A stretch of 63,405 bases of DNA, the filler included. It is 9 parts of 9 records of this genome, joined end to end, with 100 filler letters (N's around TTAATTAATTAA, not from the genome) between each part and the next. Parts side by side here need not be neighbours in the genome. Positions count along the whole stretch, not along the records: positions 7,433 to 17,223 come from SRR31147125_12555; 8 more parts are not named here. The stretch is one strand, 5' to 3'. Of this stretch, positions 7,333 to 60,116 are shown one piece after another. The position numbers and the translations under genes were made by a program. Position 1 is the stretch's first letter, and each line of letters starts with the position of its first letter. The notes under the pieces were generated by a model. The model had not been told where the DNA came from. It did no database searches and saw only the letters and a program-made list of their open reading frames with translations.

Positions 7333-7432
7333 NNNNNNNNNNNNNNNNNNNNNNNNNNNNNNNNNNNNNNNNNNNNTTAATTAATTAANNNNNNNNNNNN
7401 NNNNNNNNNNNNNNNNNNNNNNNNNNNNNNNN
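7333..7432. other. Artificial contig spacer
   Basis: 44 N + TTAATTAATTAA (stops in all six frames) + 44 N. Confidence 0.98.
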
Positions 7433-7443
7433 GGGGTATTTAA

Positions 7444-8058
7444 TCAATCGAGAATTACATCGAGCCCTGCAAGTAAAGAAACGGCCTCTGGAAGGGAAAA
7501 TCTAGTCTTTTTTATAAGGTTATTATTAGGGTCAATTGAGTAATTAGTTGCCAGTCGAAAATCAGATTGCGTTAAATTAGTTTTTAGAAACCGGCTACTT
7601 GTAAAATCCGTAGCGTTAAAGTTTCCGCTTGCCAAATTAGCTTCACCAAAATCTACATCCCTCGCAATGCATTCGACCATTATCATTTTTGTAAGGTTTA
7701 GCCCAAAAAAAGAGGATAAGTTTATCAAACAAGAGTAAAAGTTAACACTCAGGGGTGTTGCCGCCTCCGTCCAATTAACACCAACCAACTTACTATCCTT
7801 AAAGTTTACATCAATAAACGAACAATATTGAGGCTTAACCAGGCTAAGATCACATTTTGTGAACTCACAATCTTCGAATCGACATTTTTGGAATATCGAT
7901 CCGCTAAATTTACAATTTACAAATTTACAATTATAAAATTCAAGGTTTTTAAAATCTCCGTCTTTTGACTCTTTTTGTTCAAACGTTTGCCCTTCATGGG
8001 TCTTCTCAAACCCAGCCCACCGACTGTTCTCCTGTGAAAACAATGGAAGCTCTTCCAT
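7444..8058 (-). CDS. Pentapeptide repeat protein (MfpA/Qnr-like fold)
   Basis: Repeated [CA]xFxx/xDLxx pentapeptides; C-terminal YSIDPNNNLIKKTRFS motif. Confidence 0.88.
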   Translation of the reverse strand: MEELPLFSQENSRWAGFEKTHEGQTFEQKESKDGDFKNLEFYNCKFVNCKFSGSIFQKCRFEDCEFTKCDLSLVKPQYCSFIDVNFKDSKLVGVNWTEAATPLSVNFYSCLINLSSFFGLNLTKMIMVECIARDVDFGEANLASGNFNATDFTSSRFLKTNLTQSDFRLATNYSIDPNNNLIKKTRFSLPEAVSLLAGLDVILD

Positions 8059-8135
8059 ATCAAAACCTCATGAATAATACGTGCTAGAATTCCAACCCCG
8101 ACTGCGGCCAGACAGAACAAAAGTCTCTCATTTTT

Positions 8136-8693
8136 CTATTCTCGCCAATGTTCTGGTTGATTAAGCACCTCGGAACACTGGATTTTTCCTGTTACTCTTC
8201 CTATAACCCCATTACTTAACTCTTGCACCATCCAAGCACCCGCATGTTCCTCTGGAATGGGATATGGGGCTTCGTAACCAAGTGCCCCTGCCGGGATAAA
8301 GCCAGAGCGTGGATAATAATCCGGATGTCCGAGAACAAAGACTAACTCAACACCTGCTTTTTTTAATTGACTCAATCCCTCTTTGATAAGTTGGCCACCA
8401 ACACCCTTACTTTGAACATCCGGCAGAACTGCGAGAGGTGCAAGTATTTGGGCAGATACTGACTCAGAAGATTCTGTTACTGTCACCTTCGTATAAAGTA
8501 TATGACCAATAATCTTGTTATCTTCAACTGCTACAAGCGATAGTATTGGGATTGCTGTTTCATCATTCATCAATCCCTGTACAAGTTCCGCAATTTCAGG
8601 TCCTTTTTTTTCGCCAAAGGCCTTTATATGAACATTGCTTATTTCTGTTTTGTCCGATTCTGTTGATTTTCTAATTTCCACAATAATCTCCAT
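8136..8693 (-). CDS. GNAT N-acetyltransferase (YhbS-like)
   Basis: LAPLAVLPDVQSKGVGGQLI and VFVLGHPDYYPRSGF. Confidence 0.92.
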   Translation of the reverse strand: MEIIVEIRKSTESDKTEISNVHIKAFGEKKGPEIAELVQGLMNDETAIPILSLVAVEDNKIIGHILYTKVTVTESSESVSAQILAPLAVLPDVQSKGVGGQLIKEGLSQLKKAGVELVFVLGHPDYYPRSGFIPAGALGYEAPYPIPEEHAGAWMVQELSNGVIGRVTGKIQCSEVLNQPEHWRE

Positions 8694-8744
8694 TTTGTGC
8701 TGAAAAAAATTTGCCCAGCAAAAATTTTCATAAATTAATACGGG

Positions 8745-8841
8745 CTAGGAGTCTGTCGGACATAGGGGATCGTAACGAGAAAAGTGGAAACTGAGGCGGT
8801 GTTTTCACAATGGATTCATTCTAAGTCAGACAGGCTTCTAG
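8745..8841. mobile_element. 97-bp MITE with CTAG at both ends
   Basis: Left end CTAGGAGTCTGTCGGACATAG matches the reverse complement of the right end (CTAGAAGCCTGTCTGACTTAG) at 17/21 positions; no transposase ORF. Confidence 0.7.
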
Positions 8842-9653
8842 GTTTATAGTTCTCCCGCAACCGCGTCTCAACGAACCCGAACTTCCGTATATTCTTGTAT
8901 GAATGTTGCGGGTCCCCGCCAACAGCCTCGCCCGTTTCCGTAAAGATATGCGTACAACGAAGCTCTCTGGCTTTAGATATTCGTGCGGCAATAATCGCCG
9001 CCTGACTCCCCTTGCGGCGAAACTCCGGGCTGGTAGCCCCCCAATCTATCCAGGCCTTGTCCCCCACCACAAATAATGCTCCGGCTCCCGCAGGAATGTC
9101 GCCCTCATAACTGACAAACAAGTACCAGCGCGGGTCATCGGCAAGCCCGGCCAACAAAGGTATTGCAGCATCTGTCAGATCAAAGGCGTTGCAGACAATC
9201 CTGCCAAAATCTTCCGCTTTATCAGGGCAGATTTCTTCGATTCTTAAATTCGTGGATACCTCAATTGGCGGTGCCGCATCACGATGAAAGTTCATCCAGC
9301 CGCGAGCCTTTCTCAAGCCCGGCGTCCGATAATCGTTGGGGCCATTCATTGGGCATATCGTTCAAGTAAAGATGCAAGAAAAAGCTGCTGACACCTAATT
9401 TCTGATAAGCATCCACAACTTTTTTTATGGATCCCAACTCCATCGGCGCACCCGAACCGAGTCCCAGCACCCTGTTTAACAGAATACTTGTGTCATTTTC
9501 AGCAGCAATTACAACGGCGTCGGCAATTTCTAACAGATGCAACCCGAGACTCTTCCTTGTTTCCTCAGGACAGTTAGCATGCAGGCTGATTAATGCCTCA
9601 CGCTCTATCTCATCTGAAACACGCTCTATTTCCAACATTTCTGTTTCACTCAC
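8816..9653 (-). CDS. GNAT-family acetyltransferase, split by a 1-bp frameshift near 9309
   Basis: ATSPEFRRKGSQ acetyl-CoA motif and SYKNIRKFGF; removing one base at about 9307-9311 joins SDAGLEK to ARGWMNF (about 278 aa). Confidence 0.8.
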
Positions 9654-9915
9654 CTTTCACGCTGAAACAAGAATATAAATCTGGTGCCTTTTCCGCACAT
9701 ATCCACAAAATTATCCAGTTTGAAGTAGTCAGTCTTGAAGTTGATGTCCACCTTTCCCATGGTTTTGGCAAACAGCTCATCCCGAGCCTCTTTACTTGCG
9801 GTATTGCTCTGCCTGTTCGCGGTTACCCTGACCTCCATTCCATTTTTTCCACCATTAGCCTGGTTACACCCATAAGTACCAGTTCGCTCAGGGCTCCTCG
9901 TTGTTCCTTTGCCAT
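9650..9915 (-). CDS. Small hypothetical protein, probably frameshifted
   Basis: ATG at 9915 reads MAKEQRGALSELVLMGVTRLMVEK; one extra base in the T6 run at 9843-9848 continues into NGMEVRVTANRQ...FLFQRER (about 88 aa); its stop overlaps the next start (GTGA). Confidence 0.5.
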
Positions 9916-9933
9916 GTTTGCTTGCCAAATCCT

Positions 9934-10623
9934 TTAAGCCGATTCCTCACTCTTCTCACTCGGCCGGTACCGCTCAATAACCTTTTTGAATTTTTCCAGA
10001 TCACCCTCCGCACCGGAGAACATAGCTGTAAAATCGTCATTCCCAAAATATGCCGCTCGTTGCTGAGTTGTAATCTTTGATTTTTTACATTGCACCCAGA
10101 TTGAAGCCCATGCCTGAAAAATACAGAGAGCAACCAGTATCCAAAAGGAGTTCTCCGGCGCTAAAGCCTGGCTCGAAGTCCCGATATGCTCGCGAAGAAT
10201 CGTCACAAAAATCGTTATGCCCAGGAAACAGGCCATCGGAATTGTGTAATAGTAGGTCATCCACCGCGACATCCCCTTGCCTTCTGCCGAACACATCATC
10301 ATGGTTCTAATTGGCGGCATTTGAGGGTTGTCATGTTCCCACTTCAGACCCACCAGGAATACCGAGTTCAACAATCGCTGATAAACCAGCTGATCATTAA
10401 TCCATAACAGCAAAAGACCGATGGTGGCCATTAAACTCACGAGTCCAACCAGAACCGCACTTGGAACCAACCAAGTTGAATCTTCGCTGATTTTTATCAG
10501 AACCGCGATGGCCGCGAAAGCCGCAAGAATCCAAGTCGAAGCCCGGTTGCGGATTCCAGCCTGGATCGTGTTGAAGTGACGCTCCGACTCAACAAATTTC
10601 CAATATTCCTCTTTTGAATCCAT
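9934..10623 (-). CDS. Hypothetical membrane protein (about 4 TM segments)
   Basis: 229-aa ORF with four hydrophobic stretches; GGAG SD upstream. Confidence 0.75.
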   Translation of the reverse strand: MDSKEEYWKFVESERHFNTIQAGIRNRASTWILAAFAAIAVLIKISEDSTWLVPSAVLVGLVSLMATIGLLLLWINDQLVYQRLLNSVFLVGLKWEHDNPQMPPIRTMMMCSAEGKGMSRWMTYYYTIPMACFLGITIFVTILREHIGTSSQALAPENSFWILVALCIFQAWASIWVQCKKSKITTQQRAAYFGNDDFTAMFSGAEGDLEKFKKVIERYRPSEKSEESA

Positions 10624-10715
10624 GGTCTAAATCTCCATTCGGGAAATTCTGTTGAAAGTATTAAAGAGCTCTTTACCTTCGATCACAAGAATGGGCATGT
10701 TTGCCATTTACCTCA

Positions 10716-11843
10716 TCACCAACTCTCTTTTTTCGGCTGGAGAGGAATCAGCTCATATTCACGACTCCCAAGTCCTATCTTTTCAGCATGCTCCAGAGTG
10801 ATATTTCCATCGATAAGCGGATGCACCCCCCTGAATTTATCGCCACCCGGTTCATGCCCTTTCTTTAAAGCGGTTCCCGGCAGACCCTGGGCCTGGTTGA
10901 CCAGATCGAGGCAAGCCTGGTCGACGGCCACCGGGTCGGTTGAGGCGAGGATGCCGATATCCGGAACGATCGGGGCGTCGGAATGGCCGTAGCAATCGCA
11001 GTCCGGTGAAACCTGCATGACAAAATTGACGTGCAACGATTTTTCCTTTTTACCTTCCAGCGCTCCGACAGCATACTCGGCCATTTTTTTCATGACCATC
11101 GGCGCACTCTGGTTCCACTGAATCTGGATCGCCCTCTCAGGACAGGCCGTAATGCAGCGACTGCAACCGACGCACTTCTCGTCAATAATCCGGGCCTTAC
11201 CCTCGGCAAACTCGATGGCGTCATGAGCGCAGGCTTTCAGGCAAGCCCCACAACCGGTGCAGAGTTCCACCGCAACCTTCGGCGCAACGCTGGAGTGCTG
11301 CTCCATTTTCCCTTCCCGGCTGCAGCAGCCCATGCCGAGGTTCTTTACCGCGCCACCAAAGCCGGTGAGTTCATGGCCCTTGAAGTGGGAAACGATCACC
11401 ATGGCATCCGCCTCCAGGATTTCCAGTCCGATATCGACGGTTTTAAGAATTTCCCCGTTGACTTCGACCCGCCTGGCGGAATGCCCGCGCAATCCGTCGC
11501 ACATGACCAGGGGAGCGCCGACCACGGCATAAGCCAGGCCGTTTTCAATACCGCACCTCAAAGCCGAGACGGCTTCTTTCCGTTCGCCGGGGTAGAGCGT
11601 GGACGAATCGGTGACAAAGGGCCTCGCATCCAGTTCCTTGAGGCGCTCGACAACGCTGCGAAGGAACGTCGGCCGCACAAAAGCGTGCCCCCCTTTTTCA
11701 CCGAAGTGCGTTTTAACTGCGACCAAATCCCCTTGGAGGATAATATCCGCCAATCCCGCGTCGTTCAGAAGCCTGACCAGTTTAGTGTGTAGATTTTCAT
11801 TGTGTCCTGAACGCATGTCGGAAAAATAAACCTTTGAAGACAT
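10716..11843 (-). CDS. DUF362-domain protein with a 2x[4Fe-4S] ferredoxin insert
   Basis: VAVKTHFGE, SHFKGH, GGAVKNLGMG, CTGCGAC...C, CVGCSRC...CP, CDC and DPVAVDQA. Confidence 0.92.
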   Translation of the reverse strand: MSSKVYFSDMRSGHNENLHTKLVRLLNDAGLADIILQGDLVAVKTHFGEKGGHAFVRPTFLRSVVERLKELDARPFVTDSSTLYPGERKEAVSALRCGIENGLAYAVVGAPLVMCDGLRGHSARRVEVNGEILKTVDIGLEILEADAMVIVSHFKGHELTGFGGAVKNLGMGCCSREGKMEQHSSVAPKVAVELCTGCGACLKACAHDAIEFAEGKARIIDEKCVGCSRCITACPERAIQIQWNQSAPMVMKKMAEYAVGALEGKKEKSLHVNFVMQVSPDCDCYGHSDAPIVPDIGILASTDPVAVDQACLDLVNQAQGLPGTALKKGHEPGGDKFRGVHPLIDGNITLEHAEKIGLGSREYELIPLQPKKESW

Positions 11844-12037
11844 CTTTTTCTCCTCTCTTTTTCAAATAACTCTACAACAAAGCGCCGGAAAATAATGGCC
11901 CGAAAACTTTAAAATCTCCGGCGCCTGTCAAATTTTGCCACTCTGTTTAAGTTTATTAATGTTTTTATGCCGACACATGGGAATTTCAGTGAAAGATGAT
12001 ATCATAAAGAATATGTTTTTTGAAAAGGAGGGATAAA

Positions 12038-13078
12038 TTGGATCAGAAACAGCGATTTCAACTTCTGCAGAGAGCCCGCCTGAAAAGCATCCTGAAAAAA
12101 AGCACCATTTTTCTAATTGTCGGTGTTCTCCTTTATTATGGTATCGCACTGGTTTACGCCACCAAAACCATTTACAAAGTCCGCTTCAATTACGCCGTAG
12201 TCCTGGAGGACCTCGCCGGCAAACGACGGGTCGTGGACGATGTCGGCTGGCATATCCGACCTCCTTTCTTTTCACGCCTCGAACTGGAAGTTCCGCTGAT
12301 GAACCAGGAGCTTTATCTCGGCGGCGACCCCCAGGAGCAGAGGATCATTTCCAGGGGAAATGTCGCTCTTTGGGCCAGCGCCATGCTGACCTACCGCATC
12401 ACCAACCTGAAAAGATGGGGCATTGAAAACCGTGACCCCAAACAATTGTTCCAGAATGATTTCGACGGCATGGTCAAGGACGTGATGCAGGGAAAATCGA
12501 TCAATGAACTGATTTCCCAGCGCCAGGCCCTCAAGGAAGAGATCTACCAGATTCTCAAAAAAGACCCCATCAATGTCGGCGGACCGACCATGGAAGATAA
12601 ATACGGTGTCGAGATCATTTCGTTTGTTCTGCGCAATACCCGCTTCGGCGATAAACTAGCCGAGGCAAGTGAGGAAAAGAAGCGCCGCGAAATGATTGCC
12701 GAAGCTGAGAACTACGCGGCTGATCAGGAGGCCAGCAGGATCCGCAAACTGTATGCGGCTTATCGTGATTCCATCCGCGATTTCAGAAACGCTCTGGGCT
12801 TTAATCAACAGAATGATCAAGTCCTCCTCGATTTTTTGAATCAGCAGAAGTGGGCAACCGCTTACGAAAAAAACCAGCACGGGCAGAACACCTTTGTCCT
12901 GAACAATACCGCGGGAAGTCCTCCCATCGTTCTTCCCGCGCCAACTGCTTCGACTGGGATCGAACCGCCTGAGTCAGGAAACAATGGAGCCACTGGAAAC
13001 CAGGTCGTACCGGGTCCAACCCTGACGGAAGCCCTGAAAAAATATCCCTGGACCCAACAGCAAAACGCAAACAAGTAA
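12038..13078 (+). CDS. SPFH/band-7 (HflK/HflC-like) membrane protein
   Basis: AAGGAGG SD before TTG at 12038; single N-terminal TM; GWHIRPPF, YRI, INELISQR and YGVEIISFVL match SPFH; C-terminal coiled coil and Pro-rich tail. Confidence 0.8.
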   Translation: MDQKQRFQLLQRARLKSILKKSTIFLIVGVLLYYGIALVYATKTIYKVRFNYAVVLEDLAGKRRVVDDVGWHIRPPFFSRLELEVPLMNQELYLGGDPQEQRIISRGNVALWASAMLTYRITNLKRWGIENRDPKQLFQNDFDGMVKDVMQGKSINELISQRQALKEEIYQILKKDPINVGGPTMEDKYGVEIISFVLRNTRFGDKLAEASEEKKRREMIAEAENYAADQEASRIRKLYAAYRDSIRDFRNALGFNQQNDQVLLDFLNQQKWATAYEKNQHGQNTFVLNNTAGSPPIVLPAPTASTGIEPPESGNNGATGNQVVPGPTLTEALKKYPWTQQQNANK

Positions 13079-13240
13079 TCGGACGAAAATAAGGAGTTGA
13101 CACCAGATTTCGGACCCGGCAAGGAAAATCAATCCGGTCCGTTAAACCTTATTCGAGTTTTTCCACAACCTGGTAGCGGGGACCCAGCCGGTTGCACTTC
13201 CGGCACCCTCGATAAATCGGAAAGGAGATTCAAGGATAAC

Positions 13241-16200
13241 ATGTCAACCGTGCGCAAAACCAAAACCCCCATCAACGTCCGGCTTTCCGAGAAACGTTTA
13301 CGTCAGATCCAGAATCTGGTTGAAAGCTGGAATTATGAAACCCGCAGTTTCGTTCTTCAGCGCCTGAGACAATACCATCCCAAGCCTTCTCTTTTCAGAT
13401 TCATCCGCATTCTCCTTCGCCGCATGCTCCAACCATCAGAACGCCGCTTCCATATGCTTCGCAATCCCGAATCTCTGAGCGACTGGCATCGGCGCATGGA
13501 GATTTCAGGCTCCCCCAGCGCTTCGGCGGCATGGAACAAAATATTGGAACGGGAGCTCGACCGCCACGACTACTACTATCTGACCTATCTTCTTGAACGG
13601 GAAACCGCCGATATTTACGTCCCCCAGTACCTACGGGACTTTTTTGAAAAAATCTATCATGCTCATGTCCTGAAAGAATACTCTGAGGACAGCTCCATTC
13701 CACGCTCGCTGGTTTTGATTATCGGATCTTCAGGCAGCGGGAAAAGCGCCACACTCACCCAGGCCTTGGAAGAAACCATTTTTTCCATGGAAGTGCGCCC
13801 CACCATCGATCTGAAAGCCAAAAAGGAAGAGGTTCTTAAGGAGCAACCAATCTGGAAAGGGCTGGAAGAGGTCGACCCGGAACTGGCAGCTGAAATTGAA
13901 AGACGCCGCAAGGTTGAACAGCTGAAATTTCTCTCGCGACTTCCGGTCATAAAATATTTGTACCGGCAGCGGGTGGCCCAGGCCCTCTCGTCACTGGAAG
14001 AAAAAGGGATTCTGGTCGATTATGCCCAGATCACACCCAACGACTTTCAGACCGCCTGGGCCGGCGAACCGGGCAACCGCCTGCGCAAAGCCATGGGTGA
14101 AGCGGATCAACCCTGCATTCGTCATCTCGAAGAAGCCCACTCGGCATTCGGCCGCCTTGATCAGACCAGTTCCGTCAAAAGTCAGCAGGCAACCCTGGTG
14201 GACACCGCCAATATCCTGCTCGATGAAATTTCCCAGGGCAAGCGGGATTGCCTTCTTATCGCCACAACGGACCAGCCTGAGCAGTTCGAGCCATCTATCT
14301 ACAGGCGTTTTGTGGAGCGTGGACAGATCATCGACATCAATGACCTCTGGCAGCACCCTGAAAACCTCAAGGAAGTGGTTCGTCTCGAGCTGCGCCGCAG
14401 CAACTTTTTCCTCGCCACTTCAGATGAAAAGGAGGAAATCAATCAGGAAGTCCTGCTCGATGAGACGATCGAAAAAGTTCTGCCGATCTTCCACGAGCGC
14501 ACCCTGCGGATGACCCCTGCTTACCTGCGCCGGCTTATCGGTTCGATTATCGCCCTGAAAAAAGATTTTCATCCCAGCTACCTGGATGATCAGTTCCTGG
14601 TCCGGGATGCCTTCAAGGCGGTTGCCAAAAACGTCTACGGCTCACTGTACAAAAAAGTCATCGGCCGCATGGAGCGCGATGTGCACTGGCAGGACTACAT
14701 CGGGTCCATCAAGGATGAGTTTTCAGAGATGGCCAACAATTCTCTTTTTTACAGCGTCCAGGATGAAAAGGGCGTTGTCCTCTCCGGCCCCCCGGTTCGG
14801 GAAAAACCTACATGGTAAAAGCCTGGCTGGGGGAAAACACCGAGGTCCAGGATATTCTGGTCTACATGAATGATCTGAGCGATCCCGCGAATCCCTATGA
14901 GGGATTGGTGGAAAACCTGGAGCGCGTATATGACATTGCCAAGATGATCTCACCCAGCCTGGTCTTTTTCGATGAAGGGGACGCCATTGCCCCGCGCCGT
15001 TCCCAACAGGGGGAACGCCCTATGATAAAGTGACCAACAAGTTTCTCTCCATCATCGACGGCGAAGCGCCTCTCCACCATGTGTTTACCGTTTTGACGAC
15101 CAACCGCCTAGACATCCTCGATCCGGCCTTGATCCGCTCCAAGCGACTGAAGGTGTTGAACGTCTCCGGTCAGATGCGGGAAGAGGATTCGGTAAGAATT
15201 CTGCGTAAAGAGATAAAGGATATTCCGCTTGAGGAAGGCCTTAATCATGAGGAAATGGTCCGCATCGCCCGCGGCCTGTGCGACACTCCGGCTGATTTTA
15301 CCGCTTACGCCGAAAAAGTCCGCAGCCTGCGGCAAACCGAAGTCGAGGTCCTGGGCCAGCTTGCCAAAGCCATTGCCGGTACTGAAGAGGAGCGCATGCG
15401 TTTTGTCCGCTTCAACCACAAGACCCTTCTCAGTCTGCTGGAAGGAGTCCCCCACCCTACAAACCTGATCGCAAAAGCGCGCCGCAGCGAAGAGGACATG
15501 CTGAAATGCCTGGATGAAGTCGCCAAGCAACTGCAGGAACTCAGTCAAAAGGGCGGCTATCCGGTCACTCGAAGACATCTGATTAACGCCAGACATCAAC
15601 TGGGTCGCAGTCCGACCCGAAAAGGCAAACAGCAGCTTGACCGCTTTCTCGAAACAGAGCTTTCGGTGGAACCTCAGGTCGGTTTTGTCGTCGGCGTCGG
15701 CGCCAATGATGCTTCCGGAGTTTTGCTCCCTATTGCTTCGTCCCTTGTCTACCGTGTTTTTTCGGAAAAAATTGTCGTCACGGGCGCGGTGTCGACGACA
15801 GCACCCGGCGCAGCTGAAATGGATATGGCCGTACAGATGACTCGCCAGAGCGCCCAGGAGGCACTGACCCTGACGGAAAATTACCTGCAGTCCCTCTGTC
15901 CCACACTGAACATCTCACGGATTCTGGGTGAATATCTTGAAGGCTACTCTCTGCACCACCAACTTCTCAGCGCTTCCTATACAGTCGGAGGGCCATCCGC
16001 CGGGTTTGCCCTGGCCATCAACACCCTTTCGGTGCTTCTAAATCTTCCGGTTCTAAACGACTTCGGCATCACCGGAGCGCCCTGGATCAAGGGCGCACAA
16101 AAAGATGAGGTCGGCGCTTCGGTCATCATAGGCGGTCATCGCCGCAAAACCGAAAAAGTGCTTCAATACCTCCCTCGCATGTATATGCCGACCCAGAATT

Positions 16201-16649
16201 ATGAGGATATGGAACCCGAAATTCTTAAAGCTTACCGGATCGAAGGCAAAGAGATTCGCGGCGTACGCAGTTTTTCAAACCTGGTTCAGGAAGTCTTCTT
16301 TTTCGGCGATGAACATTTTCAGCGTCTCGATAAATTTCTCAATGAAAGACTCGAATACGACCTCAAAGAGCACCCGGAAAACGGCGACAATCCGGAAGAA
16401 GCCCGGCTGGCCGATGAAGAGAGCAGGTTGCGGCGCGTTGCTGAGGAGGAAATCCGCCGCCGCATGATGATTATCAGCGACTATGTGACCGGAGACAATA
16501 AATCCAGGGACTATTCAAGCCTGGAAACAGCTTTCAGCAATTTGGCCAAAGGTGAAGCGAAATCCGGCATCCCATCCCGCAGAACTGACACCAGCTCGGA
16601 AAAAAGAACCCTAAAGAAAGAGTCTTTGCCGGCAAAAAATGTCCTTTAG
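13241..16649 (+). CDS. Tandem classical AAA ATPase fused to a Lon (S16) protease domain; two 1-bp frameshifts
   Basis: D1 GSSGSGKS / HLEEAH / IATTD..IYRRF; D2 GPPGSGKT (after +C at 14788-14793) / VFFDEGDAIAPRR / TTNRLDILDPALIR (after +G at 15009-15013); Lon domain GGPSAG, GITG, IGGHRRK; about 1136 aa reconstructed. Confidence 0.85.
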
Positions 16650-16739
16650 AGTAGTTGCGAAAACAGCTTCTATCCTTTAAACTGTAGTCATTTCATTTGC
16701 TTTTAAAAACAAACCGTCTTTAAATTGAGGGAGGCAAGA

Positions 16740-16898
16740 ATGGACAAATATCGTTGTGTCGTGTGTAATTATATTTATGATCCGGCCGAAGGTGATCCGG
16801 ATGCGGGCATTGCCCCTGGAACCGCTTTTGAAGATATTCCGGAAGATTGGGTTTGTCCTCTCTGCGGCGCGGATAAAAGCAATTTTGAAAAAGCCTGA
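16740..16898 (+). CDS. Rubredoxin (52 aa, missing from the ORF track)
   Basis: [59 protein letters not shown]. Confidence 0.97.
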
Positions 16899-16911
16899 TT
16901 GAGGTCAAATT

Positions 16912-17100
16912 ATGGACCGGCAACCCTTTGTGGATCAGGAAGCTTGTATAAGCTGTCATTTTTGTGTGGACACGGTTCCGGAAGTTTTTCGCATGAACGA
17001 AGACAATTCCGCGGAGGTTTATAATCCTTCCGGAGCTCCCAAAATAAAAATCATTGAAGCTATTGAGGGATGCCCGGTTTCGTGCATCCATTGGGATTAG
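16912..17100 (+). CDS. Single-cluster ferredoxin
   Basis: CISCHFC...CPVSCI; GAGG SD. Confidence 0.93.
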   Translation: MDRQPFVDQEACISCHFCVDTVPEVFRMNEDNSAEVYNPSGAPKIKIIEAIEGCPVSCIHWD

Positions 17101-17223
17101 TCCATTTACCCGGATTATTCATGAAAACTTTTACTGCAACCGTCAATTGCACACCATCTCAGACCGTGCTCACTCCTTGCTCTTCGACGTACAGAAAGTA
17201 CGCCTGCATCGCGCGTCACTGTG

Positions 17224-17323
17224 NNNNNNNNNNNNNNNNNNNNNNNNNNNNNNNNNNNNNNNNNNNNTTAATTAATTAANNNNNNNNNNNNNNNNNNNNN
17301 NNNNNNNNNNNNNNNNNNNNNNN
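17224..17323. other. Artificial contig spacer
   Basis: Same N/TTAATTAATTAA/N linker. Confidence 0.98.
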
Positions 17324-20300
17324 ATCATCAAACACAGTAGCAGCACTCGGGCGGCTGACGGACCTGTGCAAGTCCTGCAAACAATCCTCCCATCATTTTG
17401 TAGTCCATTCCCTCGGAACAATTGTAGACCTTGCAGGGTGTGAACACACACGTACCCACCCACACCACCCCTATGGAGGCGTACCACACACTGCCTCCCG
17501 AGTGCCTTAGCAAGATCCTTTACAGTTTCCGTTTTACCCGTTCCGGCAGGCCCAGCAGGGGATCCGCCCAAGTGAAGCCGCAACGCACTCGTCAGGGTAA
17601 GATCTGTACCATCAGAGTTAAGGTACAGTTGGAGTGGAACACGAAACGGGATACAGCATCGGTCTGTCAGAGGTGTCACCACAAGACGTGTTGTAGCTCC
17701 CAGATACTCATGCCCGTAGAGGAAGCGTGAATTTGTTTGCTGAACGATACAATCGTCTTCATCCATGTCCCAGTAGAACCTTGAATCCCACCACCCAAAG
17801 TCAGAGAAACCCAATCCCCTCTCTCCACCCTGTCTCCTTCCACACGGACCTTAGTTGTTGGAGCCACTGGAAGTCCGTTTCCGTCGATACCTTGCTTTTA
17901 ATCAAGTGATCAATGATATCACGGGCGTGTACATCAATAGTGATCAACGTCACCAGGGCACAACGTTGCAGACTCGTAATATCCTTGCGCACAAGAGACG
18001 CAAGACCATTGAGCTGTTCCACGCACTTCTCTTTCATCTCCCCCAGAGCGTCAAGCGGGTCATCGGCGCTCAGGCATTGCGTTACGTCGCGGCACCAGTA
18101 GATTTGTGAACCTGTAAGAACCACTTGTGCAGGATACTCGAGCACCCATTGTTCACGTTCGACCTTTTCATACCTGAGAAGGAACGCAAGGTTAAGGAAC
18201 CCGCTTGGGCGTGCGTGGCAAGGGGAACGGATACTCCATAACAGCCGTGCGCAGGATTTTTCGCAGGCTTTGCATCATGCTCTGTTCAACCGCTGCAAGC
18301 CATAACTCCACATTGCCCCTTGCCTTCAAATTCTTGCCCAGAGACACACGCTCGCCCTCCGCTGAAATCATTGCCAGGATATCCACGCTGCGAGGATCAT
18401 TTCCAAAGTCCAACGAGACGATATCTGTAGAAGGTTAAGCAGGACAACCCAACCCAGAGAGGACAATTGAAAGAGGGGATACTGTCAAAACATTTGCGCA
18501 GATGGGGCTGCACAGCTTGGGCATTCTTGCTCTGGGCTAGAATTTCCAACAACTCATCATTAGAAAGGAAGTAAAAACGTGGGAACTTGTTGCGCTTTGT
18601 CTCGAGGTAATCTTCAAGATTCTTCTGCACCTTATCCAGTTGTTCATTGTTCTTACGGAGCGCATCCAAGAGACCGGGAATCGTTCCTGCCTTCACAGCA
18701 TTCCGGATATCGCTTGTACGCTTCATGATCTCTGAAAGACAATCAGAGGAACACACACCAGAAATCCACACACCCTTCCATGACTTGTCCACCGCAAAGA
18801 ACAATTTCGCCTCCACGGGAAGCTGTCGTTGAATGTCGAGAGCGGTGAAGATGCTTTCCAAGTACAACCAATTCTTCTGACAGGTCATCAACTCTTCCAT
18901 GGTTCCAGAAAAGAGTGACAGGTTCTTTTCCCACTCCTCTACCGTCTGTGCGCGAAACCCAGTGTTAACTCATCATCTCTCTCCGTTTGAGAGAAGGCAA
19001 TACCTTACGAATTGGTTCCACGTAACGTGAAGCGGCAATGGTTGCCACAGTTACCTGGCTATCATCCAATAACGCCATGATATCTTCCGAGTTTGTCACG
19101 ATATAGCCGTCCTGTGAATCCTTGTGCGCCACGACATTGATCTCCGTCTGAGCCCAGGTGCGTGTCACCTTTCCGAACAACTCCTCCAAGGCAACCTCTT
19201 GGGAGGCCTCGTTGGCCACCATTCCGATACTGTCTCGAACTTGGTGCGGCAGATACATGTCAAAAAAAAAAGAAGAGGTCCTTGACCCACAGAACGTACA
19301 TGTGAGGAACTTGAGTCGAAACAGGTTTCCAACTGTGAAACCCTTGTCCCGGAAGACATCTTCACCCAGAACCACATTGAGCTTCTCCCAGTGACGCGCT
19401 TGTAGAGCAGGATTCCGTAGATCTGATAATACGGGAACCGCGTTCTGATAATCCATCCCATGAGAATGAGTGAGTCGGGCCGCACACAAACACGCACCTT
19501 GAAATCACTGATCAAGGCTCGAAGACGCGAGACAATGATATTGGGGGGCAGAGCTCGTTCAAGTGCAAGAACCTGCTTCAAGTAACTCTGGACACTTGTC
19601 TCCACGGCCCCCATGTCCACGGTCTGGAGGGGTGTCTCCTTCCATTGTGCAGTGATCTCTTCCCAATCGTTAAACGTAGTCCATAACTTGCTCTTGAGTG
19701 TCAAATCGGAGACCACTTCTTCAAGCTCCTCATATTTCGTGACAGGAACCCCCAAGATCTCCTGGTATTCGCCAAATTTGGCGGCATCGGCGGATAAACG
19801 GTCCACTTCGTTTTGGATTCCCTGAAGAAAGTCCAACACCTCACACAGTTGCGATTCACCCGAAAGGATCTGTTCAGAAGTAAAGGGGAGAAACGAAAGC
19901 GCTTCATCTATCGAATGGATACAATTGGATGTTGAATCTTCTGTTTGAGCTCGGCAATGGAAATGTTAAGCTTTCCAATGTTCGTTTCAAGTTGGGCCAC
20001 GAATTTTTGCGCGACTGTGAGAGATGTAAGGCACACACACAAACATGAAAAGGAAGAAGGTTCGATGGATACTCTCATCCTTGGCACCCTCGGAATAGTT
20101 CAAAGACGCTTTCAGTTGTGTCAATGTTGGGATAAGGCGTTGGAAGTCATGGTACTCGGACATCATCACCTTGATCTGGTGGAGAGTCAAAACCTCATGA
20201 ACAGGACGGGGCGACTCATACCTTATTCTCCTCCATGAGCTTATAGAAGTCTGTAACCATGCCAACCTTTTCCTCGAGATCAGGCAACTCTCCGGTCATA

Positions 20301-23061
20301 CGGTGGATTGTACTCAAAAAGTCAACAAAATCTTCCACCTGCACGGAAGATGTCAGAACACCACACCCCCGACCCCACACACAAACCGATGTCGGTGTGG
20401 CCGAGAGACTCTGAATGGCGACTTGGAGTTCCGAAAGAACAACTCCCGTCTTCTCTCGTGCGATAACAGGTAATAACTCTTGAATTTCCTTGAGACATCG
20501 TCGTGGTGAGGGTGTAATGAGTTCCTTGAATTTCTTGCTATCCACACGCAAGATTCCAATGTTCGTTGTGGTGGTGAGACTAATGAAGTCACATGAGTAA
20601 GAAGGGCACAGCGAAAGGGGAGGGGGGGGACGTACCCATCAAACTCCTCAACCTGACTCTTGTACTTCTTCATGTCCTTTCTGAAGTCATCGGCCAAGTA
20701 CCCACCATCTTTGAAGGCTTGAATGTCTTGGAAGGTGAGTAAAGGGTCAAAACTGAGAATACGACTACTACAGCGGATACTTGTGGATCGATTCTCCAAG
20801 TGCATCCCCAGGAAGGGCTCAAACCACTTGACATGCTCCAATGCGGCATTGAGAGCACTGTCAATGGCATCCAAGATCTCGCCCACGACGTCCTGATATT
20901 TGTCATCTTCCAGGATTATTACGCTCAGATCGTTTCCTCGGTTTGCCGTGAGTTCAACAATGTCGGCCGTGATGTGCCGGAAACCCTCCTGTAGGCAGCA
21001 GTTCATTCCTCCATTCGTGTACACACGCACACACACACACACATACGCCATCGCACCTCAACCAGAAGCTTGTCGACGGAGGATACCGCCTTCACAAAGT
21101 AGCAGATGATGGCCTTGATACGTCCCTGGAAATCGTCTCGAGACGGTTTGAACACGAACACATCGTCGTTCACCAGGAGCTCAATGACACAGAGCGGAGC
21201 ATTCGATGCCTCGTGTACACGTTTCTTCGGTGGTGCAGACTGCGACGACGCATCGACGCGCTCAGCCCCCGGAAGAGCTGTCTTTCCTCCACCGCGAAAG
21301 ACACGAAGGAGATCGTTAAGGGATTCCATGCACAGCAGTCGAAGTGCGTCCAGCATGACAAAGTCACAGAGTCGAATGTCTACAGGATCGCTTAGATTGT
21401 TTTCCACCCGCCACCTGCCACCCGCCACCCACAACACGTACAATTAACAAGTTTTCGGCACTCGAGACGTTTAGCAGCCATCTCCGTGTAGGATAGATCT
21501 TTTTGGGTCGAAGCCACTCCAAGAGGTTTCAGGCGCTCCGTGTTTCGAGAATGGAGGGTGGCAGAGATAGAAGATGCTCCTGTGCCGCCGGCATTCACCA
21601 TGGCAATGTATCGCTCGGCTTCCATTCCGGCACTGGCAAGGACGGCATCGCACGCTTCGTGGACGGTTGAACGAATCGCTTCCCAGAATTTCTGAAAGTG
21701 TGTGGCCACAACAGCTTTTTGGGCCCTCTGGAGTCCGAAGAACTCCTCAAGTGTAACTGTACGAATCGTCAAGGATTTGTGAGGGGATGGAGAACTCCCC
21801 CAAAGGAGGATGGATATGTCTGGTTCCTTGCCAGTTTGTAGAGTTGTAACGTACTAATCTCATAGCATCGATCGCGAATGGCAAGAAGCGACTTGCGAAG
21901 GGGTGTGCTGAGGATGAAGAGGTTGTCTTCGAGCACGATCTTGGCCGCGTCCATCTTGCTTTGCCGTACATTCTTCCTCCATACCGTATACGCCTTTTGA
22001 CAAAGTGTGTGTGTCCCCGTCAGTCAGTCCTTCCATGAAGGCACACCAGAACCGGAACAAGGTACCTTCCATATACGATATTTCTGAAACGTTCCGATTT
22101 GTAGTAGTCGATTGAACACAGAGTGTTCACGTTCCCATTGTTCGAGTGGTGTGAATTCTAATACGAAGGGTGTTTGAGAAACGTAGGTGCATGCATGATC
22201 ACACTTCCAACCTGCCAAATTGTTGACGAAATGGGTCACTCCTGCAAGACTTAGTGTGTAGTAGTCTGTCACATTGATCGCCGAATGGGGTACAACTTCC
22301 AGATTGTATGGGTTGAAGATCTCGGACTCAACCGGTTTCATGTACACGAACTCCCCTTCCTTGCCGCTCTCACGAGCTTGCCTGGATCGATCGTTAAGGA
22401 TTTTACCTCCCAGCCCCAGTTCATGCCATCGAACACCCCCAACAACCACATGGATACGGATGAACACAGAGGGATCGCGTGAGGCCTCCATCCCACCCGA
22501 CGTTCGGGTAAGAGAGGGAAGGTTGTTTCTTTTTCGCGGAGGCACACGAAGCAGATCCTCTTCGTGTGTGGAGGAGAGGGTTCGAGGGTCGGGTGGGGCT
22601 GGGGCAGGTTCCTGTGGCGACAATGGTTAAGGGGTTTCGCCTACAACACAGGACGGCGCCACAGGGAGAATTGCGGATACAAGGGGCGTCAAGTGATGTC
22701 CTTTGGGAAAGGGAACGCGGCCCTGTCCCGTCGAGTCGACGCAGGTTAGAGTGGGATGGGTCGTTCCGCGCCCAACCAAACCCATCCAACGCACCCGCAG
22801 GTCGGCGTCCCCAGTTTCACCTCCTCGCATACGCGCCGCTCTCGCTCCGCGTACGAGGAGGGCGGGTCCTGTGGGATGGGGCAGGTCGTAGAGGCGGGAG
22901 ACCGGTGCCGATGGCGAAGAGCCTTCACCGACATCGCCCGTTGTGTCGGTTGCCTCTGCATGACTGCCTCCCGGTGTGTTTGGTTTGTTGGCGTCTTCGA
23001 GGTCTCTGCCACCGTTGGTAGGGGAGGGACTTACGCGCCGACGGTCCTCCTTACGCTCCAT
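17324..23061 (-). CDS. Axonemal dynein heavy chain, DNAH6-like (multi-exon, truncated in AAA1 at the contig edge; 5' end approximate)
   Basis: Exons encode [86 protein letters not shown] and YNCSEG; GT-AG introns at 17430-17484, 17604-17654 and 17780-17849 restore the conserved frame. Confidence 0.93.
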
Positions 23062-25955: not shown

Positions 25956-26055
25956 NNNNNNNNNNNNNNNNNNNNNNNNNNNNNNNNNNNNNNNNNNNNT
26001 TAATTAATTAANNNNNNNNNNNNNNNNNNNNNNNNNNNNNNNNNNNNNNNNNNNN
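25956..26055. other. Artificial contig spacer
   Basis: Same linker. Confidence 0.98.
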
Positions 26056-26996
26056 AAATTTAACATCCGAAATAAAATTAAGGCACTACTCACCCAAAAC
26101 ATTAAAGGCCTATACGGGGTGGGTTCGAAAGTTTCAAAACTTCACCAAAAGCAAAAAAACAACACAATTATCCGGTTCTGACGTCAAGGCCTTCTTGACT
26201 TTTCTGGCTGTTGAAAAGCAGGTGTCTGCTTCATCGCAGAATCAGGCCTTTAATGCTCTTTTTGTTCTTTTTCAGACATGTTCTGAAAAACGAATTCGGG
26301 GACTTGAAGGACATTCCAAGAGCAAAAAGAAAACCCTACATCCCGGTAGTCCTCTCCCGTGATGAGGTTGATGCGATTATTGAGGAACTTTTCTCCCCTT
26401 ATGATTTGATCGCCAAGCTTTTGTACGGTTGCGGACTTCGATTGTCTGAATGCATGAAGCTTCGCGTACAGAACTTCAACTTTGATAACAGCGTATTAAC
26501 TGTTCATGACGGGAAAGGCAAAAAAGACAGAACTGTTCCTCTGCCGGAAAAAATCATGGGAGATTTAAAAACCCAACTTGATTCTGTTATCTCACTTCAC
26601 CAAGAGGATATCGAAGCGGGATATGCAGGAACGTTTCTGTTTGATTCATTAGAGAAAAAATATAAAAATGCCGCAAAGGAGCTCGTCTGGCAATGGTTCT
26701 TTCCTGCAAAAATTTTATCTTTGGTTCCGGACAAAGGGGAATACCGACGTTATCATCTTCACGAAACTCACGTACAGAAAGTGATTAAACAGGCGGTCCA
26801 CAAGGCAAAAATCCCGAAGCGTGCGTCCCCCCATACCTTTCGACACAGTTTTGCCAGTCACTTGCTGCAAGCCAATTACGATATCCGAACCATCCAGGAA
26901 CTCTTGGGGCACAGCGATGTTAAAACAACCATGATTTACACCCACACAGTCCAAAGCCGAACTATCAAGCAAGCAAAAAGTCCTCTTGATTTTTGA
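26056..26996 (+). CDS. intI: Integron integrase (5' truncated by the contig edge; 1-bp frameshift at 26259-26263)
   Basis: Upstream frame reads IKLRHYSPKTLKAY..W...VSASSQNQAFNAL; downstream frame has YGCGLR, GKGKKDR, IntI patch (LEKKYKNAAKELVWQWFFPA...RRYHLHE), HTFRHSFASHLL, LGHSDVKTTMIYTH. Confidence 0.92.
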
Positions 26997-31596: not shown

Positions 31597-31696
31597 NNNN
31601 NNNNNNNNNNNNNNNNNNNNNNNNNNNNNNNNNNNNNNNNTTAATTAATTAANNNNNNNNNNNNNNNNNNNNNNNNNNNNNNNNNNNNNNNNNNNN
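31597..31696. other. Artificial contig spacer
   Basis: Same linker. Confidence 0.98.
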
Positions 31697-37374: not shown

Positions 37375-37474
37375 NNNNNNNNNNNNNNNNNNNNNNNNNN
37401 NNNNNNNNNNNNNNNNNNTTAATTAATTAANNNNNNNNNNNNNNNNNNNNNNNNNNNNNNNNNNNNNNNNNNNN
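37375..37474. other. Artificial contig spacer
   Basis: Same linker. Confidence 0.98.
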
Positions 37475-40400: not shown

Positions 40401-42190
40401 TCTTGATATAAACACGCTGATCACCGACATCCAGATCGGAATCGACTTCATGCAGAACACACAGATCGAGGTTCTGCAGGAACGGCATCAGATCGTTCAG
40501 CACACTGCGCTTGAGGCTGTAATACTGCAACCTGAAGTAATTTTCCTCTTCATGAAACGGCCCCCAGAGATCAAAGGCATCATTCCCGTCCCGCAGCAGC
40601 TGTTCAATATTACGAACGTCACGGACGGCGAAGCGAGGATGGGTGCGAGCACGATAATCCTTATTGAAGGCCTTGCTGTAACGCTCCCAGGTCTCAAAAG
40701 AATCCTCGGCAAACTGTTTTTCGAGCAGCTCCCGGAACTTCAGCTTCCACGGCATAGCGATCCGCGTCAGCCCTTGTTCCAGCTGCATCAGATTCAGTTC
40801 CACTTCTTTGCGGTTGAGTTGCAGATTGACGTGCAGGCTGAGATAGTCGGAGGCCATGTGGATCAAACGTGATTCGACCGTTGATGCACGCAGGTAGCGC
40901 CGCAGGTAAGTTTCCATCCGCTCGATGTGCTCCGGCAGATAATACTCGTTCGGCATAATCAACAGCAGCGTGATTCCGGTTTCTGACGCACTCGGCGCGA
41001 CAACTACTTTAACCCCGGCCTGACGGTGCATCTGAGTAAAGGAGCGCAGCATCCTCTCAAGCTCATTGTCAGCCAGAAGGAACATCTCTATCTTCGGGAA
41101 GCTGTTCAGAACCTGAATGGTCTTACGATAATTGTGGCTGTCGTGAAGAATGTTCAACTTGGCTTGCGCTTTCTCGATTTTTGTCCGCAAAGCAGGAATC
41201 GAAAAGCTCGTCTCATCGATACTCTTCTGTGTGTAGAAGCCCCAGAAGCAGTGTTCACGATAGCGCCCGTCTGCCATCTCTTCACGCAGCCCCATATACG
41301 TCAACCGCTCAAAACGGTGGAGCGGGCAACGCAAGTCTGTTTTCTCAAGATCAACGTTTTTCCCGTGACCGAGCAGAGGAAACACCTTGTCGGGTGTAAG
41401 CGCAACAGATTCGGTGCTCTTGTAAAATGCCTTTGGATAGAAATCTGTCAAACCGAAGGATTGATCCGTCTCTTCCTCAAATTGGTTGACATCGCCCCCG
41501 GCGGGATAAACGTAGTGACGTGTGGCTACCGGGACAAAATTATCCTCCTGCAGCCACGCGTACAGATCGGCGTGCAGCTTCAATCCCTCAATTTGACCGA
41601 GCTGCTCAATCTGGCCCTTCATGGATTGACGATCTTCATAAATCTGGTTCGCTGAATTCAGAATGATCCTGACAGCGTCGGTCAACTCGCCGATCAGACG
41701 CGCCGGCAGCCGCTCTATCTCCATCCAGACAAAGGATTCACGCGGCAGGTCATCCTGTGCCACTTCCACCCTGGCCAGTTGCCCGTCGACTCTTTCCACA
41801 GAGAAAATCGGATGGCAGATCACCCGAAAGTGGAGTGATTTACGATGTAAAAATTCCTGCAAAGAAAAAAGATATGGTTTGCATCGGGGGAGTTGGTAAA
41901 AGGTAGTAGTGCCCTGCCTCAGATTGAGGCTGGATCGCGACCTTGACACGGTCCTTATTGTTCAACAGAAAGTTCCCGGCCTGTTGAAGGTTTTCAACCA
42001 GCTCCGTGAGACTTATCTGCGAGAGAAAATTGCCCGGAATCTCCTGACGAAGAATCTCAGCCAGAGACATCAAGACAGGAAGGTTGGCCTTCTGGCCTTG
42101 CCTGATCAATTCCTGCTCAATAGCTTTGCTTTGAAATAACTTCTCCTGCTCTTCGGTAGTACGACCTTTTCTTGCGATTGACACTTTCAT
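37475..42190 (-). CDS. gdhB: Large NAD-specific glutamate dehydrogenase (3' truncated; frameshift at about 41878-41900)
   Basis: HLRGGKVARGGIRWSDR, KNAVIVPEGSKGGF, YLVVAADKGTA, GYDHKKLGITARG, GDMSGDVFGNG, EGGNLG, NTDAIDNSAGV; N-terminal 116-aa ORF joins via homopolymer repairs (HYYLFTNSPDAKPYLFSLQEF). Confidence 0.93.
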
Positions 42191-43630: not shown

Positions 43631-43730
43631 NNNNNNNNNNNNNNNNNNNNNNNNNNNNNNNNNNNNNNNNNNNNTTAATTAATTAANNNNNNNNNNNNNN
43701 NNNNNNNNNNNNNNNNNNNNNNNNNNNNNN
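43631..43730. other. Artificial contig spacer
   Basis: Same linker. Confidence 0.98.
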
Positions 43731-52602: not shown

Positions 52603-52702
52603 NNNNNNNNNNNNNNNNNNNNNNNNNNNNNNNNNNNNNNNNNNNNTTAATTAATTAANNNNNNNNNNNNNNNNNNNNNNNNNNNNNNNNNNNNNNNNNN
52701 NN
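52603..52702. other. Artificial contig spacer
   Basis: Same linker. Confidence 0.98.
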
Positions 52703-60094: not shown

Positions 60095-60116
60095 AATCTT
60101 TAATCTCTTTTTTTAT

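Follow-up and report, generated by a model that had tools for sequence, protein, structure and literature searches.

An SPFH gene paired with a double-AAA/Lon protease gene: a candidate membrane-associated protein quality-control operon

SPFH proteins are universal, and the protease partners described for them are of only two kinds, the FtsH/m-AAA proteases and the NfeD/ClpP-like proteases; a survey of prokaryotic SPFH operons, in the portion of its text available, links SPFH subfamilies solely to NfeD and FtsH (PMC2636767). In the HflK/HflC-FtsH and prohibitin-m-AAA systems, a membrane-anchored SPFH protein is tied to an ATP-dependent protease of the classical AAA clade. The stomatin-NfeD operons (PH1511/PH1510, QmcA-YbbJ, and FloA-NfeD) are conserved two-gene operons in which the partner is related to serine proteases. 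The present analysis concerns a gene pair at positions 12038-16649 of a 63,405-base stretch of DNA, the whole of which is referred to below as the window. In this pair, a gene for an SPFH protein is followed on the same strand by a gene for a protease with two AAA modules and a Lon peptidase domain. The theme of an SPFH protein with an AAA protease is known; the protease architecture, as judged from its sequence, appears to be new.

The locus shares features with both groups of described systems. As in HflK/HflC-FtsH and prohibitin-m-AAA, a predicted membrane-anchored SPFH protein is associated with an ATP-dependent protease of the classical AAA clade; as in HflK, the SPFH protein has a basic N-terminal tail and a single span, and its likely role is in membrane protein quality control. 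Unlike FtsH, the protease is predicted to be soluble, with two AAA rings and a Lon Ser-Lys peptidase in place of the M41 zinc peptidase, and it lacks the transmembrane and periplasmic parts by which FtsH touches HflK. Unlike HflK/HflC, there is one SPFH gene and no K/C pair, and a separate HflK/C-like pair is kept in the same genome. The conserved two-gene arrangement and the serine-protease-related partner recall the stomatin-NfeD operons, and the SPFH domain is closest in sequence to the stomatin/QmcA type. In contrast with those operons, the partner is ATP-dependent and not NfeD or ClpP-like, and the SPFH gene comes first. The pair consists of the following elements.

12038..13078, + strand: gene for an SPFH/Band 7 protein of 346 aa with a single hydrophobic span; orthologues are 52-91% identical
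13079..13240, + strand: spacer of 162 nt between the two genes
13241..16649, + strand: gene for the double-AAA/Lon protease, about 1136 aa, broken in the deposit by three assembly indels

The central observation is the constancy of this arrangement. An SPFH gene lies directly upstream of the protease gene, on the same strand, in 12/12 loci having upstream DNA (L001, L006, L007, and L076-L084; L008, a fragment without upstream DNA, is left out of this count) and in 40/40 further genomes of the order, giving a total of 52/52 loci. The original prediction had proposed scoring how often protease homologues carry an SPFH gene directly upstream, and the outcome that would have spoken against it, homologues mostly lacking such a gene, was not found among these loci. 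The 40 derive from 48 order genomes, five of which were already among the 12 loci, while G464, G481, and G583 gave fragmented hits and were not fetched; by coordinates, the SPFH gene adjoins the protease gene in G464, G481, and G418.

The presence of the two genes is likewise coupled. In a sample of 401 genomes of the phylum, an SPFH orthologue (E <= 1e-20) occurs in precisely the 10 genomes that have the protease. In the order sample, each gene is present in 48/201 genomes, 47 of which have both; in G418 the SPFH gene and the first 24 codons of the protease lie at a contig end, and in G583 a protease fragment alone lies at a contig start. Apart from one such contig-end case, the SPFH subfamily was not found without the protease in the order sample. 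In 11/12 loci the protease start lies -95 to +50 nt from the SPFH stop, with the frames overlapping in many loci, and this short or overlapping spacing suggests that translation of the two genes is coupled. Long spacers are present only in L001 (+330) and in the window (+162), where the positions of both genes and the gap at 13079-13240 agree with the original description of a single-span SPFH gene followed 162 bp later by the protease. No terminator-like site was detected on the + strand of this spacer, which has no Rfam match and no predicted RNA structure (fold z-score +0.68). The genomic case for a dedicated functional pair is strong, though all of it is drawn from related genomes within one phylum.

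The protease begins at ATG 13241 with the conserved N-terminus MSTVRKTK and comprises an N-domain, two AAA modules (D1 and D2), a Lon domain, and a helical tail, with the following features.

13241..13690, + strand: family-specific N-domain, about 150 aa, conserved from bacteria to archaeal members
13724..14311, + strand: first AAA module (D1), with PF00004 matches
13724-13747, + strand: D1 Walker A, GSSGSGKS
14051-14077, + strand: D1 pore loop, TAWAGEPGN, a classical word, with MWYGE in distant members
14117-14140, + strand: D1 Walker B, IRHLEEAH
14261-14281, + strand: D1 motif ATTDQPE
14297-14311, + strand: D1 motif IYRRF
14771..15149, + strand: core of the second AAA module (D2), with Walker A GPPGSGKT, aligned to VAT D2
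14890-14904, + strand: D2 pore loop, NPYEG, in which PYEG aligns with VAT KWVG
14959-14982, + strand: D2 Walker B, LVFFDEGD
15090-15113, + strand: D2 sensor-1, VLTTNRLD
15132-15149, + strand: D2 Arg fingers, IRSKRL
15669..16316, + strand: Lon (S16) peptidase domain, with Lon_C matches
15987-16004, + strand: Lon motif GGPSAG, with the Ser codon at 15996-15998
16068-16082, + strand: Lon motif ITGAP
16125-16148, + strand: Lon motif IIGGHRRK, with the Lys codon at 16146-16148
16317..16649, + strand: C-terminal helical tail, with an AExEIxxR motif at 16440-16463 in which E1070 and R1076 are invariant

Across 24 members that share 33-81% identity, the invariant residues include G163, G168, K169, T172, and E299 in D1; G517-K523, E580, N623, R634, and R637 in D2; and S921, T946, and K971 in the Lon domain. 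D1 also carries an insertion of ~75 aa between Walker A and the pore loop. In the intact orthologue at L001, Pfam detects two AAA stretches (E 5e-29) and a marginal Lon_C match at 809-993 (21.5 bits against a cut-off of 21.1); on the ORFs (open reading frames) of the window the Lon_C match reaches E 3.6e-5, at 23.9 bits against the same cut-off. None of 10/10 members has a predicted membrane span; the most hydrophobic 19-mer lies within the Lon domain and in 9/10 members is the helix behind the catalytic Ser. Pfam matches, alignment, and hydrophobicity thus agree with the prediction of two AAA modules, a Lon Ser-Lys domain, and no transmembrane segment, and the protease has, by its conserved motifs, all parts required for ATP-driven unfolding and Ser-Lys proteolysis. 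For the N-domain, Pfam gave nothing credible in 10/10 members, all matches being at E >= 0.07 and far below the cut-offs, and a profile search of PDB returned nothing below E 0.7. A ribbon-helix-helix fold for N-domain residues 8-45, a visual impression only, was rejected when neither the Pfam nor the PDB profile searches gave any credible match. An aromatic/basic amphipathic helix near aa 48-66 offers a lead for membrane contact, though it does not amount to evidence.

On the window, four ORFs on the + strand cover the pair: 12020..13078 for the SPFH gene and 13097 (ATG 13241)..14818, 14812..15033, and 15030..16649 for the protease, the last three jointly carrying the AAA and Lon_C matches. 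The reference for repair is L001, a locus from a metagenome-assembled genome of Desulfuromonadales that is 97% identical and was the only locus returned by a scan of genome contigs; its protease is one unbroken ORF of 1137 aa. Relative to L001, the deposited protease sequence is 1 nt short in a C6 run, 1 nt short in a G5 run, and 3 nt short near 13706-13714. The two runs that shift the frame are the following.

14788-14793, + strand: C6 run, one C short, inside D2 Walker A; the first false frameshift, with +C behind 14787 in the X1 and X3 contigs
15009-15013, + strand: G5 run, one G short; the second false frameshift, with +G behind 15008 in the X1 contig

Contigs of four public sequencing runs were compared over this stretch. 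A Logan contig of run X1 covers 12038-16649 and has +CGC, +C, and +G at the three indel sites, being otherwise identical; X1 is a possible source run of this DNA, so that its contig represents a separate assembly but not a separate sample. A short contig of X3, from a different sample and study, likewise has the +C. Relatives have a single unbroken protease ORF of about 1100-1140 aa, and the frames are open without stops in all 10 relatives of the phylum sample and in the full-length ones of the order sample. Because the X1 contig carries the missing bases at all three sites, the split into three ORFs is an artefact of assembly, and the protease gene is whole in the organism. The original claim that the split would hide the protease from automatic annotation therefore holds for the deposited record only and not as a property of the gene itself.

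The closest structural relatives of the ATPase part are VAT, p97, and Cdc48, which match over D1 and D2 together (E 7e-40), as expected for a tandem of classical AAA modules. The C-terminal part matches Bacillus subtilis LonBA (8dvh) and Archaeoglobus fulgidus LonB (1z0b) at E 1e-4 to 1e-3, with the catalytic residues of Lon domains, including that of 1z0b, aligned to the GGPSAG Ser and the IIGGHRRK Lys. The Lon_C match, with the marginal scores given above, and the conserved Ser-Lys dyad place the domain in S16. As in LonA, LonB, LonBA, and LonC (MEROPS S16), a Lon_C match, an invariant Ser-Lys pair, and an ATPase with a peptidase on one chain are present, and in the alignment the GG-x3-K pattern is shared with LonB and the Pro before Ser with A-type centres.

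The protease departs from this family in several respects. LonA, LonB, and LonC would be expected to have one Lon-type AAA+ module and an equivalog match, whereas this protease has two classical PF00004 modules near VAT/p97 and carries neither a Lon N-domain nor a membrane anchor. Its scores against the lon and LonB equivalogs fall well short of the cut-offs (TIGR00763, 30 bits vs 608; TIGR02902, 34.3 vs 723; TIGR00764, 25.6 vs 517), as do those against the NCBIfam FtsH models. The number of residues between S921 and K971 is 49, against the 42 between Ser and Lys given for LonA and LonB in the accessible part of a subfamily description (PMC9569914); a Pro precedes the catalytic Ser, as in the A-type centres described in that part of the same source. 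The arrangement is also related to that of VAT/Cdc48/p97 with the 20S proteasome and of Cpa of actinobacteria, in which a tandem D1-D2 unfoldase delivers substrates to a self-compartmentalised peptidase. In contrast to those systems, a peptidase of Lon type is fused to the unfoldase, the N-domain shows no detectable relatives, and D1 carries its insertion; the CDC48 model TIGR01243 gives 34.3 bits against a cut-off of 802.65, and the N-domain has no credible relative of Cdc48 type. By these comparisons the protease fits no described Lon subfamily. In the available portion of a 2008 list of Lon_C architectures, there is no AAA-AAA-Lon_C entry (PMC2605481). Full-text literature searches, with subscription journals outside their coverage, found no description of an SPFH-Lon pair or of an AAA-AAA-Lon architecture, in agreement with the initial statement that no Lon-type partner of an SPFH protein has been described.

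The SPFH gene probably starts at TTG 12038, 5 nt past the ribosome-binding site and consistent with the N-termini of orthologues. Its features are as follows.

11997..12005, + strand: promoter-like extended -10, TG-n-TATCAT, upstream of the SPFH gene; a consensus match only
12025..12032, + strand: AAGGAGGG, the ribosome-binding site ahead of the SPFH gene, with AAGGAGG/GGAGGT words near -12 in orthologues
12053..12100, + strand: conserved basic N-terminal tail (RFQLLQRARLKSILKK), predicted cytoplasmic, with R12 invariant and L10 nearly invariant
12101..12160, + strand: hydrophobic span of ~20 aa with a conserved central Tyr-Gly; Kyte-Doolittle maximum 2.15, Y33 and Y40 invariant
12188..12733, + strand: SPFH (Band_7) domain, Pfam stretch 57-238 of a 352-aa ORF
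12644..12910, + strand: long charged helix and conserved C-terminal QQKWATAYEKNQ..NTFVLNN segment, with many invariant columns between 204 and 287

A TGTTATA(AT) word related to the extended -10 occurs in 13/52 orthologous upstream regions (median position -38), and sigma-32 and sigma-54 patterns matched 0/53 upstream regions. Membership in the SPFH superfamily is clear from the Band_7 profile PF01145 (70.5 bits vs a cut-off of 23.6, E 2.3e-19; 69.2 bits in an orthologue), and the charged helix and NTFVLNN segment resemble the elements that form wall and cap in SPFH cages. The protein does not belong to HflK/HflC: the HflK equivalog TIGR01933 gives 17.2 bits vs a cut-off of 159.4, and the family profile matches the HflK- and HflC-like paralogues of G001 only at E above 0.1. 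The nearest relative of the SPFH domain is the stomatin/QmcA type, with E 6e-8 to that paralogue and QmcA as the sole PDB match. The host of L001 has four further SPFH genes, an HflK/C-like pair among them, and the SPFH protein of the pair is therefore, by this sequence comparison, an extra, dedicated paralogue.

The membrane face occupied by the SPFH domain is predicted from the charges around the span. Among 41 orthologues (12 of 53, without the anchor motif, being left out), the mean number of K+R in 15 residues is 5.0 before the span vs 3.6 after it, the N-terminal side exceeds the C-terminal side in 32/41, and the tail before the span is nearly free of D/E. Within the same genome, the HflK-like paralogue has seven K/R before its span, like the SPFH protein of the pair; MKK and an acidic far flank are found in the HflC-like paralogue; and the N-terminus of the QmcA/stomatin-like paralogue is uncharged, unlike the strongly basic tail here. 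With five to seven positive charges, a tail of 20 residues should remain cytoplasmic, and a basic cytoplasmic tail followed by one 20-residue span would therefore put the SPFH domain in the periplasm, as in HflK/C. This placement is fairly probable. Counter to it, the flank after the span is likewise basic and without acidic residues, and the domain is nearer in sequence to the cytoplasm-facing stomatin/QmcA type; the QmcA cage protrudes into the cytoplasm according to the accessible text of a published account (PMC13086221). A stomatin-like, monotopic, and cytoplasmic SPFH domain is accordingly a serious, if less probable, prospect.

The protease family extends beyond the order. A HMMER search with the N-terminal 525 aa against 1.84 billion representatives gave 92 proteins at E <= 0.001, eight of which (1068-1138 aa) match end to end, the others being mostly fragments; clustering at 90% gave 662 relatives. 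Where named, the records read "AAA family ATPase", "SpoVK/Ycf46/Vps4", or "transitional endoplasmic reticulum ATPase", and the source organisms include Desulfuromonas, Geoalkalibacter, Geothermobacter, Malonomonas, and Geopsychrobacter. Distant full-length relatives share 33-38% identity (P0006, P0016, and P0227), and two of the distant relatives are named Candidatus Woesearchaeota and Nanoarchaeota (DPANN); MBR9683063.1 and MCG2719043.1 are accessions of archaeal members. A quick unrooted tree with long branches, uninformative on the direction of transfer, groups the 16 bacterial rows in a single clade and places the archaeal rows that carry names among unnamed distant ones. The family thus appears to cross domains, with members in bacteria and archaea. 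As a lead only, the ESM Atlas adds three bacterial and two archaeal clusters of about 910-920 aa with AAA and Lon_C, and a search of it with the SPFH protein gave no archaeal lead. Shorter archaeal AAA and Lon_C clusters of ~910 aa were seen in Thermoproteota and Bathyarchaeota. The protease is always single-copy and is present in 10/401 genomes of the phylum, 48/201 of the order, and 5/7 of the family; the two family genomes without it are the smallest assemblies, at only 1.7 and 2.0 Mb. A metagenome scan yielded three family members among 60 loci, the other 57 matching the D2 AAA part alone.

The flanks of the pair vary between loci and hold housekeeping genes such as those for a DUF362 Fe-S protein, ResB, peptidase M24, MscS, and others. 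The recurrent neighbour is an Hsp20 gene, directly downstream of the protease on the same strand in 14/46 loci with downstream DNA, a count made up of 11/35 short stretches (seven under 1 kb) and 3/11 larger loci. The 14 genes lie at L076:5230-5670, L077:5605-6060, and L078:1197-1727 and in 11 of L147-L181. Hsp20 may be a third operon member in one sub-clade. In the lineage of the window its place is taken by a rubredoxin (E 1e-25) and a single-cluster ferredoxin at 16725-17100 (+), 75 nt past the protease, an order also seen in L001 and L147-L149. No NfeD gene, such as a stomatin-NfeD locus would be expected to have, is present among 54 flanking ORFs of 10 loci or the 10 ORFs of the window contig. 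Searches for links to defence or mobile elements gave no specific match: PADLOC defence models returned nothing below E 0.004 and weak generic AAA matches only, PHROGs gave generic AAA matches only, 72,556 plasmid records had no match to the N-terminal 525 aa at E <= 1e-8, 0/17 loci on viral contigs are family members (generic AAA matches only), and the flanks of 10 loci hold no integrase or defence genes.

Several further observations concern the surroundings of the pair. On its upstream side, divergent from the SPFH gene, 10716-11843 (-) encodes a DUF362 protein with a 4Fe-4S dicluster insert, which is also found beside the pair in L001, L076, L077, and L078. At 9934-10623 (-) lies a 229-aa hydrophobic protein without a Pfam family, conserved in L001 only, with a faint PADLOC match (Hydrolase-TM, E 0.006). 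Two overlapping ORFs at 8816-9653 (-), of 177 aa with a GNAT domain and of 124 aa, may be one indel-broken gene; L001 is not syntenic at this place. At L079:10824-12778, a divergent HflK/HflC-like Band_7 pair adjoins the SPFH-protease pair.

The window itself strings together nine contigs, with spacers of N44 + 12 bases + N44 between them, and the SPFH-protease pair sits on the contig 7433-17223. The joins are as follows.

7333-7432, 17224-17323, 25956-26055, 31597-31696, 37375-37474, 43631-43730, 52603-52702, and 57772-57871, on the window: N runs

GC content across the nine parts ranges from 0.30 to 0.58 with genes from unrelated organisms, resembling a mixed bin or metagenome chain. On the part adjoining the bacterial contig, short ORFs at 17324-21051 (-) match dynein heavy chain (AAA_6 E 4e-24, DHC_N2 E 4e-9) and look like exons of a eukaryotic gene. 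Other contigs of the window carry a phage-type integrase at 26211-26996 (+), a large NAD-glutamate dehydrogenase at 37475-41949 (-) that runs off its contig end, and a SusD/TonB-receptor pair typical of Bacteroidota at 58472-62762 (-).

The reading to which we incline, by a modest degree, is that the pair forms an operon of two genes encoding a membrane-associated machine for protein quality control, with an SPFH scaffold. The single-span SPFH protein would presumably form the ring or dome typical of its superfamily and delimit a patch of membrane. The soluble protease of ~1137 aa, with its N-domain, two rings of Cdc48/VAT type, Lon peptidase, and helical tail, would be produced by mostly translationally coupled expression, and its hexamer would be held at the SPFH patch, most simply via the basic cytoplasmic N-tails of SPFH and the N-domain of the protease. 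The D1 pore loop (W-A/Y-G-E) may grip exposed cytoplasmic segments of damaged or unassembled membrane proteins, and ATP hydrolysis in D1 and D2 would extract and unfold the substrate and then feed it to the Lon chamber. Such a machine would be a functional analogue of HflK/C-FtsH in which the protease is of another kind and not membrane-bound. Membrane-associated protein quality control is suggested by the Hsp20 neighbour, the housekeeping surroundings, and the analogy to HflK/C-FtsH; the oligomeric states, the physical contact, the membrane face of the SPFH domain, and the substrate class are those we infer.

Several points weigh against this reading. The adjacency counts all come from related genomes of one phylum and are not independent events, and Hsp20 accompanies the pair in only part of the clade. 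A fusion search, in itself weak evidence, gave no SPFH-protease fusion and no SPFH fusion longer than 606 aa. The protease has no membrane or periplasmic part in 10/10 members, so that a contact of the HflKC-FtsH type is not available to it; the known HflK-FtsH contacts are periplasmic, according to the accessible portion of the source (PMC12048511). The basic N-tail speaks for an SPFH domain in the periplasm; only ~20 residues on the cytoplasmic side would then be available to the protease, and since HflK-FtsH contacts are periplasmic and the protease has no such part, the N-tail would be the only possible direct contact. The original proposal that an SPFH cage recruits a soluble AAA-Lon machine as an analogue of HflKC-FtsH is supported in part, through the dedicated conserved pair and the Lon-type partner with two AAA modules.

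A more elaborate form of the scaffold model, which we consider rather unlikely, is degradation coupled across the membrane: a periplasmic SPFH cage would corral membrane or periplasm-exposed proteins, and its basic N-tails would dock a Cdc48-Lon hexamer beneath, which extracts and degrades them. A different relation between the partners, and an unlikely one, is that the SPFH protein is the target, the protease gripping its N-tail or another exposed end and extracting or degrading subunits to control the assembly or opening of the ring. Strict pairing and coupling fit this equally well as the scaffold model, the conserved N-tail is the sole SPFH segment surely exposed to the cytoplasm, and a precedent exists in the stomatin PH1511, which is trimmed by the NfeD-type protease PH1510 of the same operon, in the accessible text of two reports (PMC2636767, PMC13086221). 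However, a 1137-aa double-ring unfoldase would be costly for trimming one partner, and the Hsp20 neighbour in 14/46 loci points to general protein damage. The two genes could also be co-transcribed neighbours without partnership, the protease being a general cytosolic quality-control enzyme that shares a promoter. The predicted N-in topology, which may put the bulk of the SPFH protein in another compartment, and the 162-330 nt between the genes in the window lineage would fit such an arrangement, but adjacency in 52/52 loci despite varying flanks, identical presence and absence across 401 genomes, overlapping frames in many loci, and the lack of the SPFH subfamily without the protease save in one contig-end case make it clearly improbable.

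Some defence systems contain SPFH proteins and Lon-like or AAA proteases, and the pair might be an anti-phage or conflict system in which a membrane sensor of SPFH type is coupled to a protease that, as the effector, destroys proteins of the cell or the phage upon infection. A patchy distribution at the phylum level (10/401) and homologues in a second domain of life are in keeping with this. The absence of any specific match in the PADLOC, PHROGs, plasmid, viral-contig, and flank searches, the single-copy presence in 5/7 family genomes as for a vertically inherited housekeeping gene, and the recurrence of Hsp20 as a neighbour nevertheless render a defence role very improbable. That the protease is a decaying pseudogene in this organism, and the pair no longer functional here, was suggested by the two frameshifts of the deposited sequence. 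Both lie in homopolymer runs and are absent from the X1 contig, one is absent from the X3 contig, and the frames of relatives are open without stops; as the X1 and X3 contigs carry the missing bases, the probability of decay is negligible and this reading is rejected.

If the SPFH domain is periplasmic, the question becomes how a soluble cytoplasmic protease couples to a scaffold across the membrane. The eukaryotic SPFH proteins Erlin1/2 offer an analogy of layout only: the pathway of endoplasmic reticulum-associated degradation (ERAD) linked to erlins includes a p97 step, and a ring on one membrane face picks membrane proteins for a cytosolic degradation machine, although that pathway is eukaryotic and ubiquitin-dependent with a separate unfoldase and proteasome. 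A link between erlin1/2, RNF170, and IP3R is described in the accessible part of the source (PMC9168715). Coupling across the membrane, if true, would make the pair a prokaryotic counterpart of erlin/ERAD-p97 retrotranslocation that works without ubiquitin, and would add a third class of SPFH-partnered protease, with a machine common to Desulfuromonadales and DPANN archaea. The fusion of a Cdc48-like double ring to a Lon peptidase is a combination outside the LonA/B/BA/C scheme. Strict conservation of a third kind of pairing, here with a Lon-type enzyme, would mark the SPFH scaffold with a protease as a general design that has evolved repeatedly, and the pair would offer a simple two-gene system for asking what service a scaffold performs for its protease.

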